Source: Candidatus Colwellbacteria bacterium RIFCSPHIGHO2_02_FULL_45_17
Lineage (GTDB): Bacteria > Patescibacteriota > Minisyncoccia > UBA6257 > Colwellbacteraceae
Assembly: GCA_001817685.1 (NCBI GenBank)
Contig: MHIV01000010.1
Location: forward strand, 1 to 30,185
Direction: 5' to 3'
Length of the DNA stretch: 30,185 nt
Shown here: positions 1,052-30,185 of the stretch, piece by piece
How positions within the stretch are numbered: the first letter of the stretch is position 1
Layout of the letters: every line of letters starts with the position of its first letter
Made by a program: the position numbers and the translations under genes
The notes under the pieces: generated by a model
What the model was told of the DNA's origin: nothing
What the model saw: the letters and a program-made list of their open reading frames with translations, nothing else
Database searches by the model: none

Positions 1052-1389
1052 TGGCACCCAAAGTTAAGGACGAGAATGAAGGCGATAGGCTCCGTTTGAG
1101 AATCCGCTCTTACGACCATCGCTTGCTTGATAATTCTGCTAAGCAGATTATTGAAACCTTAACGCGCCATAACGCAAAAGTTATCGGTCCAATTCCTTTA
1201 CCTACAGAATTCAAACGCTATACCGTTAACCGATCTACGTTTGTCCACAAAGATTCGCGTGAGCAATTCGAATTGCGTATACACAAGCGCCTGATCGACG
1301 TAATAAAACCATCGCCGGGGGTAATAGAATCTCTTAGCGATTTGAATCTTCCTGCCGGGGTGGAGGTAGAGATAAAGATGGCTTCATAG
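1051..1389 (+). CDS. rpsJ: 30S ribosomal protein uS10
   Basis: RLRIRSYDHRLLD and GPIPLPT...HKDSREQFELRIHKRLID motifs; TAATG overlap with tuf. Confidence 0.98.
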   Translation: MAPKVKDENEGDRLRLRIRSYDHRLLDNSAKQIIETLTRHNAKVIGPIPLPTEFKRYTVNRSTFVHKDSREQFELRIHKRLIDVIKPSPGVIESLSDLNLPAGVEVEIKMAS

Positions 1390-26215: not shown

Positions 26216-26833
26216 ATGAGTAAAAAAGACTTATCGTTTAGTTTTCTCGCCGCAGTACTAGTAACCGTGCTGTCGTATCCAACGGTTCTAAATGTTGCGG
26301 AAAATCTGACTCAGGCACGGCAAGTCCTAATTTCTGTTGCGCTTGGTGCACTTACAATTATCGGTCTTTTTACACTGCATTTTTTGGAAAGGTGGGTTAG
26401 GGTTCTATGGCAACTGGGAAAGTTTATTGTTGTCGGTGGGCTCAACACATTCGTCGATTTCGGAGTTCTTAATCTTCTCATTATTTTCACAGATATAACC
26501 TCGGGTTCAAAGTTTTCTTTCATCAAGGGTGTCGCTTTTACAATAGCGGTAGTAAACAGTTATTTTTGGAATAAGCACTGGACTTTCGAATTCAAAGAAA
26601 GGAAACAAGGCGAAATTCTCGAATTTCTTGCGGTAAGCGTTGTGGGATTGGGCCTGAACGTTGGCGTAGCATCTTTGCTTGTTAACCAAATTGGGCCGCT
26701 TTGGAACCTTTCCCCGATTCTATGGGCTAATGTGAGCGCCTTCGCGGCTACTCTTTCTGCCTTGGCGTCAAATTTCGTCGGCTATAAGTTTATAGTTTTC
26801 AGGTCAGGCCGCAAGAAAGGGCAAGCGACCTGA
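26216..26833 (+). CDS. GtrA family membrane protein with extra N-terminal TM helices
   Basis: KFIVVGGLNTFVDFG, NSYFWNKHWTF, FLAVSVVGLGLN, NFVGYKFIVF. Confidence 0.9.
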   Translation: MSKKDLSFSFLAAVLVTVLSYPTVLNVAENLTQARQVLISVALGALTIIGLFTLHFLERWVRVLWQLGKFIVVGGLNTFVDFGVLNLLIIFTDITSGSKFSFIKGVAFTIAVVNSYFWNKHWTFEFKERKQGEILEFLAVSVVGLGLNVGVASLLVNQIGPLWNLSPILWANVSAFAATLSALASNFVGYKFIVFRSGRKKGQAT

Positions 26834-29471: not shown

Positions 29472-29866
29472 GGAGGTAATCCAGATAGTAGCTTTTCTCT
29501 AGAAGTTTCCATTATCGGTCATCGACTGCTCTTCACATTCGGAAACCCAAAGGAGTAAAGAGGAAAGTCCGGACACCCCTTCGACTTCGGTCGAAGAGCA
29601 AGGTAGCGGGTAACGCCCGTCGCACGTAAGTGTAGAGGTGCGAGCAGTAACGGTCTCGACTCGCAAGAGTCGGACGAACCCAATCCCAACGTAGAAGGTT
29701 CTGCTTGGCTATAGGGATAAGAAAGCCAAGATGAAACGGCAAAATCCTTACCCGGGTGCAAGGTCGTACTCCGACTTCGGTTGGAGAGTACCGCATGAGC
29801 CCGAGAGTAATCGAGGGTCTAGATAAATTACTATCAGATACAGAATCCGGCTTACGGATTGCCTCC
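29472..29866 (+). ncRNA. rnpB: RNase P RNA (~395 nt)
   Basis: Universal GAGGAAAGTCC (29560-70) and ACAGAATCCGGCTTA near the 3' end; P1 GGAGGTAATCC/GGATTGCCTCC; P2 GATAGTAG/TTACTATC; P8 CGGGTAACGCCCG. Confidence 0.97.
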
Positions 29867-29909
29867 AAAACAGGACTATCTCCCAAGATAGTCCTGCTTT
29901 GTTTTTTTT
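29867..29909 (+). terminator. rnpB intrinsic terminator (potentially bidirectional)
   Basis: CAGGACTATCT-CCCA-AGATAGTCCTG, perfect 11-bp stem; T-rich tail on the plus strand and AAAA on the 5' side. Confidence 0.85.
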
Positions 29910-29920
29910 AAAGAGAGTGA

Positions 29921-30036
29921 GTATACGTCATGAAGAACATCCCGCAGGTTCTCTCGCTTGGGATTATGGAGAGAACCGAGGGCGAAGAAAATCCAGCCGC
30001 TGGAGCTGGATTATTCTGGTTCTGAATGACGTGTGC
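29921..30036 (+). ncRNA. Candidate structured RNA (three-way junction), family unknown
   Basis: Four nested helices: 11 bp, 5 bp, 9 bp and 8-12 bp; G.U pairs favour the plus strand. Confidence 0.55.
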
Positions 30037-30049
30037 GAGCGAACCACCC

Positions 30050-30068
30050 AGATAGTCCTGTTTTGTTT
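30050..30068. repeat. Second copy of the terminator arm (direct repeat of 29886-29904; inverted repeat of 29866-29881)
   Basis: AGATAGTCCTG(C/T)TTTGTTT, 18/19 identical to 29886-29904; 30050-30065 is the exact reverse complement of 29866-29881. Confidence 0.85.
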
Positions 30069-30185
30069 GTTCGTGCTAAAATGAACGAACATATAAACAC
30101 ATTTCGTCGAATCAATATGAATGAGTTTATATTCTATGGAACGTCTCGGAGACATTTGAGCTTGGTGTCACCTTCGGTGACTCAA

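Follow-up and report, generated by a model that had tools for sequence, protein, structure and literature searches.

The window, by which we mean the whole 30,185-nt stretch of DNA analysed here, ends shortly behind rnpB, and between rnpB and the next gene lie two tandem copies of a structured repeat. Copy 1 contains the multi-helix element that a preliminary description had placed immediately downstream of rnpB, and the placement is right: the flagged part starts 52 nt past the Rfam match to rnpB and 13 nt past the terminator region. Copy 2, the tenth in this genome, begins 60 nt downstream of copy 1 and is cut by the contig end. Its full sequence, unlike that of copy 1, was taken from L046 (6105-6258, equivalent to 30110-30263 of the window), a public contig that carries the neighbouring RNase H gene and whose coordinates become those of the window when 24005 is added. 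There the 3' end of copy 2 touches the ATG of a gene for a 250-residue PD-(D/E)XK nuclease, which is thus the gene beyond position 30185 that the preliminary description had left to be identified. The parts of copy 1 and its surroundings, all on the plus strand, are as follows.

29473..29869, +: rnpB, bacterial RNase P RNA class A (Rfam RF00010, 108.5 bits); context, outside the element
29870..29908, +: rnpB intrinsic terminator region, hairpin CAGGACTATCT/AGATAGTCCTG plus a T-run
29883..29904, +: left copy of a 22-nt direct repeat flanking copy 1; it is the 3' arm of the rnpB terminator
29906..30050, +: repeat copy 1 (the flagged copy), full extent; covariance models R1, 145.5 bits, and R2, 129.7 bits
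29910..29920, +: outer helix P0, 5' strand AAAGAGAGTGA, the 'GCGAGCGAG box'; pairs with 30037-30046
29921..29931, +: P1, 5' strand; each P1 pair covaries
29930..30025, +: 31-codon ORF within copy 1, not a gene; its ATG is missing from other copies
29934..29938, +: P1b, 5' strand AGAAC; closes the three-way junction
29941..29943, +: P2', 5' strand CCC; its partner is GGG 29980-82, not the P2 loop
29944..29946, +: conserved internal loop GCA; faces GA 29978-79
29947..29955, +: P2, 5' strand
29956..29968, +: P2 loop, with conserved GCTTGG at 29956-61
29969..29977, +: P2, 3' strand
29978..29985, +: GA loop, P2' 3' strand GGG (29980-82) and junction J2/3 (CGA)
29986..29997, +: P3, 5' strand, AGAA plus AATCCAGC
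29998..30004, +: P3 loop CGCTGGA, nearly invariant
30005..30017, +: P3, 3' strand, with conserved bulged A30013
30018..30023, +: junction G30018 and P1b 3' strand GTTCT
30026..30036, +: P1, 3' strand
30037..30046, +: outer helix P0, 3' strand GAGCGAACCA
30047..30068, +: right-hand counterpart of the 22-nt repeat at 29883..29904
30110..30185, +: repeat copy 2, same strand as copy 1, cut by the contig end; R2 gives 119.3 bits on the longer public contig

The helices first proposed for copy 1 agree with the sequence at their coordinates and are reproduced by the minimum free energy (MFE) fold: P1 (29921-31/30026-36), AGAAC/GTTCT (29934-38/30019-23), P2 (29947-55/29969-77) and P3 (29990-97/30005-12). 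The extension of P3 by AGAA (29986-89) and TTCT (30014-17) is also present, with A30013 bulged. That so many helices were beyond chance is borne out by the fold of 29915-30045, whose MFE of -59 kcal/mol compares with -35.0 +/- 3.2 for shuffled sequences (z -7.5); none of 200 dinucleotide shuffles folded as well, and the opposite strand folds 14 kcal/mol more poorly. Two details of the preliminary description fared differently. The tandem GA/GA loop is real in copy 1 but is not conserved at that place among the other copies. A pseudoknot between ATCCC and GGGAT of the P2 loop had also been suggested; the complementarity exists in copy 1, but GGGAT is missing from most copies and covariation contradicts the pairing, as CCC 29941-43 pairs with GGG 29980-82 and the two change together to CGC/GCG or CUC/GAG.

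The structure is uncatalogued, as had been supposed. At gathering score, rnpB was the sole Rfam match in the whole window; Rfam 15 gave copy 1 no match at E<=10, the three hits returned for 29860-30185 all being at chance level, and ten diverse family members had none on the element at E<=5. ARAGORN found no tRNA or tmRNA gene in the window. Upstream of copy 1, the sole copy scanned, there was no promoter-like site. Our literature searches found no description of this repeat family.

A sequence search of the genome from which the window comes (G000; 462 kb in 38 contigs) showed that the flagged stretch recurs on seven other contigs, and a covariance model found nine full copies, scoring 99-152 bits. 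The model R1 (alignment A1) was built from these nine; R2 is a broader model. Repeats of the family are roughly 145-165 nt long. Among the closest relatives, 16 of 41 genomes carry the element, with 1-24 copies per genome of 0.4-1.3 Mb. Across the class it is present in 43 of 151 evenly sampled genomes (40 of 124 genera), so that 72% have none, and eight genomes of other Patescibacteria classes also have it. In the Saccharibacteria one contig was confirmed by the model, at 89 bits; this was the one true case among the matches listed in a wide scan of GTDB genomes with a loose pattern, the other listed matches being chance occurrences in GC-rich genomes, and the scan does not define the limits of the family outside the Patescibacteria. 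In viral contigs the loose pattern gave chance matches, and neither of the two matches to a specific pattern was confirmed by the model. DNA contigs from several groundwater and soil samples confirm the flagged sequence and break inside the repeat, and the end of our contig inside copy 2 is probably likewise an assembly break caused by the repeat. Logan contigs of other samples break at 29984-30026.

Comparison of copies showed that pairing, rather than the sequence of the helices, is what has been kept. Within the genome itself the helix sequences change and the pairing stays. In 68 copies (A3), aligned by fitting to the model, 92.7% of the cells are in standard pairs, against 57.5% after shuffling and 38-50% when one partner was slid, and 41 of 43 pairs have changes on both sides; homologues therefore conserve the pairings. 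P3, for example, becomes GGCGCG/CGaCGCC in relatives. The unpaired parts behave in the opposite way: the junction, a GCUUGG bulge, the CGCUGGA loop and the bulged A are nearly invariant, whereas all helices vary yet stay paired. In the alignment of the nine copies the conserved single-stranded blocks are GAAC-AU-C(C/G)C-GCA-GG before P2, CCGAG(G/C)GNGAAGAAA between P2 and P3, CGCUGGA in the P3 loop and UAUUCUGGUUC 3' of P3. The first G and the A of the internal loop GCA (29944..29946) are more than 90% conserved in the 68 copies, CGAG.G (in the region 29978..29985) is conserved family-wide, and about 35 unpaired nucleotides in all are conserved at phylum depth.

Each copy consists of a long closing hairpin (P0, P1, P1b) capped by a three-way junction, on one strand. 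In its usual form the element has a longer P2, then the GCUUGGU bulge and an extra hairpin, P2b, which most relatives keep and which most copies in this genome have lost, the flagged one included. The 'GCGAGCGAG' boxes flanking P1 resemble direct repeats, but in antiparallel alignment they pair with each other as the outer helix P0, made up of two Watson-Crick pairs in alternation with tandem G.A pairs. In copy 2 the G.A pairs are retained and the C-G pairs have become A-U (UGAAUGAG/CGAAUGAA), and in other lineages P0 is an ordinary helix, such as TAAAGCGAA/TTCGCUUUA. The copies also combine P1, P2 and P3 differently, which suggests recombination among them.

Several features tell the strands apart. 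In 34 of 36 copies the strand on which the element was described gives the more stable fold, the mean difference being 7.9 kcal/mol; G.U pairs outnumber A.C pairs by 65 to 17; the other strand would have C.U in place of the tandem G.A pairs in P0; and the conserved unpaired residues are purine-rich. Therefore, the constraint acts on a single strand of this polarity, which is either RNA or single-stranded DNA (ssDNA).

The neighbours of the copies in this genome are unrelated housekeeping genes (alaS, dnaJ, ychF, infC, ftsX and a release-factor gene, prf), and no recurrent small ORF, tRNA or other RNA was found beside copies. For 57 copies genes could be called on both sides: 26 copies lie antisense and 14 sense between tandem genes, 13 lie between convergent and four between divergent genes. 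Of 63 neighbours on the 3' (right) side, 44 are convergent and 19 otherwise oriented, and the stop codon of a convergent neighbour usually falls -7 to +10 nt from the end of the model. The 5' side is loose, with 11-743 nt to the neighbour. Copies commonly end in the inverted pair TAAAG...CTTTA, which gives both strands a TAA at their start. The copy next to ychF follows the native TAA without a gap and leaves about 25 nt to the TGGTATAAT box of the next gene; the last residue of YchF is the same whether or not a relative has the element. GC skew near copies is mostly negative on the element strand (seven of nine in this genome, 42 of 68 overall) and is inseparable from gene orientation.

Some further observations concern the surroundings of copies. 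Downstream of ychF (G000:C11:11724-11746; L335, G003) the next gene starts 7 nt past an extended -10 box, TGGTATAAT or, in G003, TGATAGAAT, which is consistent with leaderless mRNAs. Two copies in the genome of the window are preceded by a stable-RNA gene, one by rnpB and the other by tRNA-Lys(UUU) (L016:1844-1916, G000:C19), which lies 200 nt upstream on the same strand. Many copies have 300-650 nt of apparently non-coding DNA on their 5' side, which is unusual for such compact genomes (for example G000:C15:8480-9106, G000:C29:14335-14941, L019, L024 and L036), and we found nothing common to these gaps. L014 (G000:C15, about 26733-26803) and L010 (G000:C29, about 1193-1262, minus strand) have another stretch of about 70 nt in common upstream of their copies, with a covarying hairpin (CCCACA...TGTGGG in one, GCGAGT...ACTTGC in the other) around the loop TTCTCTCATC; an additional module or a terminator that has been displaced may account for it. 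In the genome G217, all six copies on contig C12 are on the plus strand, and on C5 five copies at 12-89 kb are on the minus strand and one at 314 kb is on the plus strand, so copy orientation tracks the chromosome arm or the local gene direction.

Copies are present or absent at equivalent sites of related genomes. In G003, which has no copy, rnpB is 72 nt from the same nuclease gene, as compared with 392 nt and two copies here, so the spacer was short in the ancestor and the two copies were added to it. The 22-nt direct repeats around copy 1, CCAAGATAGTCCTGCTTTGTTT and CCCAGATAGTCCTGTTTTGTTT, are identical at 20 of 22 positions, and a 12-nt direct repeat flanks copy C29b. Flanking direct repeats with a score of at least 9 were found for nine copies, with about 1.7 expected; they are 9-22 nt long with no fixed length, and most copies have no clear target-site duplication. 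Exact-protein look-ups revealed no presence/absence polymorphism at the level of strains, all the contigs found carrying the copies. At one site the intergenic space between orthologous genes holds a copy in both G000 and G005, which belong to two genera, and the helix sequences of the two are wholly different.

Two copies lie in frame within genes whose Pfam domains flank them. In parB of G005 a copy of 139 bits encodes residues 64-118, between the N-terminal peptide GRGLESLIP and the ParB_N domain, which starts at residue 126. In the cysteine desulfurase gene of G037 an antisense copy of 82 bits is read in frame, and the Aminotran_5 match is split into four stretches. Both inserts, of 52-57 residues, are absent from the orthologues in the genome of the window. 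Five further ORFs that span copies had no Pfam match and are not counted as intragenic. The cysteine desulfurase gene of G037 (L033:322-1929, minus strand) has two more in-frame inserts, both with the peptide SDFGFRNSD, which points to a second, different repeat family translated in the same gene.

We searched for a factor that might mobilise the repeat. The genome of the window, which is 92% complete, has no match to RVT_1, to Y1_Tnp (RAYT/IS200) or to TnpB; it has a single tyrosine recombinase, and no split or ORF-bearing copy was found in it. Among five high-copy genomes, Y1_Tnp was found in two and RVT_1 in one. Y1_Tnp (PF01797) was found neither here nor in the other three, G018, G217 and G005, and G018, with 24 copies, had no RVT_1 match either. 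The PD-(D/E)XK nuclease gene was considered as a partner and rejected, as 32 of 41 relatives have it, with the element or without. A retron msr/msd was likewise set aside: there is no RVT_1 in the genome, and the neighbours are housekeeping genes.

We think it likely that the element is a dispersed, non-autonomous, structure-dependent and probably mobile intergenic repeat of Patescibacteria. This reading rests on the dispersed copies, their patchy occurrence and variable number, the filled and empty sites, the in-frame copies and the modular shuffling of helices; against it stand the failure to find a mobilising enzyme among the families searched, the absence of a clear target-site duplication from most copies, and the lack of any strain-level polymorphism in our look-ups. 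We suggest that a folded single strand, ssDNA or RNA, would be recognised by a factor, that spread would require this recognition and that only copies keeping the fold would propagate; such a limit would explain the covariation, and it is from the covariation that we infer a need for the fold in propagation. A transcribed copy would form a very stable Y-shaped RNA, which may incidentally affect 3'-end stability or read-through. Accepting the preliminary proposal of a new ncRNA or riboswitch aptamer is then possible in part: an uncatalogued structure is indeed there, but it belongs to a dispersed repeat family, and the flagged element appears to be neither a ligand sensor nor a dedicated single-copy RNA gene.

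The position of the copies invites another reading, in which the element is a cis-acting RNA module, beneficial to the host, at the ends of transcription units. Such a module would stop, insulate or process antisense transcripts or rnpB read-through, and a conserved host protein or RNase would recognise its junction and loops. At most loci with a convergent stop codon the 3' edge lies within the -7 to +10 nt given above; the excess of convergent right neighbours (44 versus 19 loci) and the 2:1 antisense bias point the same way, as do the two tandem copies that part the highly expressed rnpB from the next gene, the intergenic site filled in two genera and the purine-rich conserved unpaired nucleotides. 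Indeed, the deep conservation of unpaired residues across the phylum and the shared site would also fit an RNA function selected in the host, and the antisense bias and the abutment on stop codons are unexplained by a simple selfish model. However, no U-tract follows the structure on either strand, 14 of 40 copies in tandem contexts are sense-oriented, high-scoring copies lie within essential ORFs, in which a terminator would do harm, and the element is missing from 72% of the sampled genomes of the class. On balance, we consider a cis-acting module unlikely. Multi-copy RNAs that act in trans or as catalysts, such as a new self-cleaving ribozyme or a protein-sequestering RNA, would account for the strand-specific fold and for a three-way junction whose junction and loop nucleotides are invariant throughout the phylum, and known small ribozymes are also multi-copy and patchy. 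But the element matches no Rfam ribozyme or other RNA family and has no hammerhead-like core (CUGAUGA...GAAA) on either strand, the one copy scanned, copy 1, has no promoter-like site upstream, and copies are translated inside genes. Nothing that we tested specifically supports a ribozyme or a trans-acting RNA, and we regard both as very unlikely.

The genomic contexts led us to reject a riboswitch aptamer controlling the downstream gene. The compact multi-helix junction with its conserved unpaired purines, and the position of the flagged copy upstream of a co-oriented gene, had made it attractive, but the flanking genes are unrelated, 44 of 63 copies face a convergent 3' gene, copies occur in tandem and inside ORFs, and we saw no expression platform, neither a terminator nor an alternative fold that sequesters a Shine-Dalgarno sequence. 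Moreover, the nuclease gene downstream is found in 32 of 41 relatives whether or not the element is there. We consider a riboswitch extremely improbable, and we give practically no credence to the idea that the element encodes a 31-residue peptide: an ATG-initiated ORF (29930-30025) exists and is called by gene callers on public contigs, but the other copies lack its start codon, and the substitutions compensate for one another within helices and are not synonymous.

Returning to the mobile repeat, we can imagine, as a quite unlikely but consequential extension, that the invariant three-way junction provides the core, for recognition or catalysis, of a new kind of mobility that is specific for strand and structure. 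The element might, for example, be a small RNA that processes itself, or ssDNA that a host enzyme not yet tied to transposition copies to new sites. If true, this would explain both the phylum-wide conservation without a known transposase and the preference for positions flush with stop codons. The genomes of Patescibacteria are among the smallest and most streamlined in bacteria, yet they keep up to 24 copies, even inside essential genes. Cataloguing the family would end repeated reports of such loci as new sRNAs, riboswitches or small ORFs and would explain contig breaks in these metagenome-assembled genomes. It also poses a tractable problem, namely which factor recognises and spreads a branched single-stranded structure without a known transposase, RAYT or reverse transcriptase.

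Among known systems, the repeat can be likened to the Rickettsia palindromic elements (RPE), which are about 100-150 bp long with strong hairpin potential and occur in a reduced genome, in intergenic regions and sometimes in frame in essential genes; to our knowledge, no transposase is known for them. The Patescibacteria repeat is also a multi-copy hairpin, with 9+1 intergenic copies here and in-frame copies in genes elsewhere. The likeness drawn here is one of kind, with a different phylum, and the Patescibacteria repeat differs in its conserved three-way junction, invariant loops and strand-specific G.U and G.A pairs, in its conservation across a phylum and in its preference for the stop-codon-flush position. 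The ERIC/IRU sequences of Enterobacteriaceae, imperfect palindromes about 127 bp long, lie between genes, are conserved from genus to genus and evolve with compensatory changes; they occur in either orientation beside genes and may affect mRNA stability. Our repeat is likewise intergenic, spans genera and has compensatory changes. However, ERIC is a simple long hairpin conserved in sequence along its length, whereas here the stems vary and the junction and loops are fixed, and in-frame intragenic copies are, as far as we know, no feature of ERIC.

REP sequences and REPINs are similar in being multi-copy extragenic palindromes at the 3' ends of genes, with structure-dependent recognition of one strand, but REPs are 20-40 nt hairpins with a GTAG head and an accompanying RAYT gene (TnpA_REP, a Y1 transposase), whereas the present repeat is a branched structure of 150 nt. 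Like the Correia elements of Neisseria (CREE/NEMIS) and other MITEs, it is a short non-autonomous repeat at gene boundaries; its ends are often inverted (TAAAG...CTTTA), and some copies have flanking direct repeats. P0 is GCGAG-like. In contrast, MITEs have a fixed terminal inverted-repeat sequence, target duplications of fixed length and a related transposase, whereas P1 and the arms of the Patescibacteria repeat vary freely between copies, the direct repeats beside it measure 9-22 nt or are lacking, and the searches for Y1_Tnp and TnpB in this genome revealed no transposase. The Patescibacteria repeat is unlike RPE, ERIC/IRU, Correia elements and REPINs in combining a phylum-wide three-way-junction core, with invariant loops, and the polarity of a single strand.
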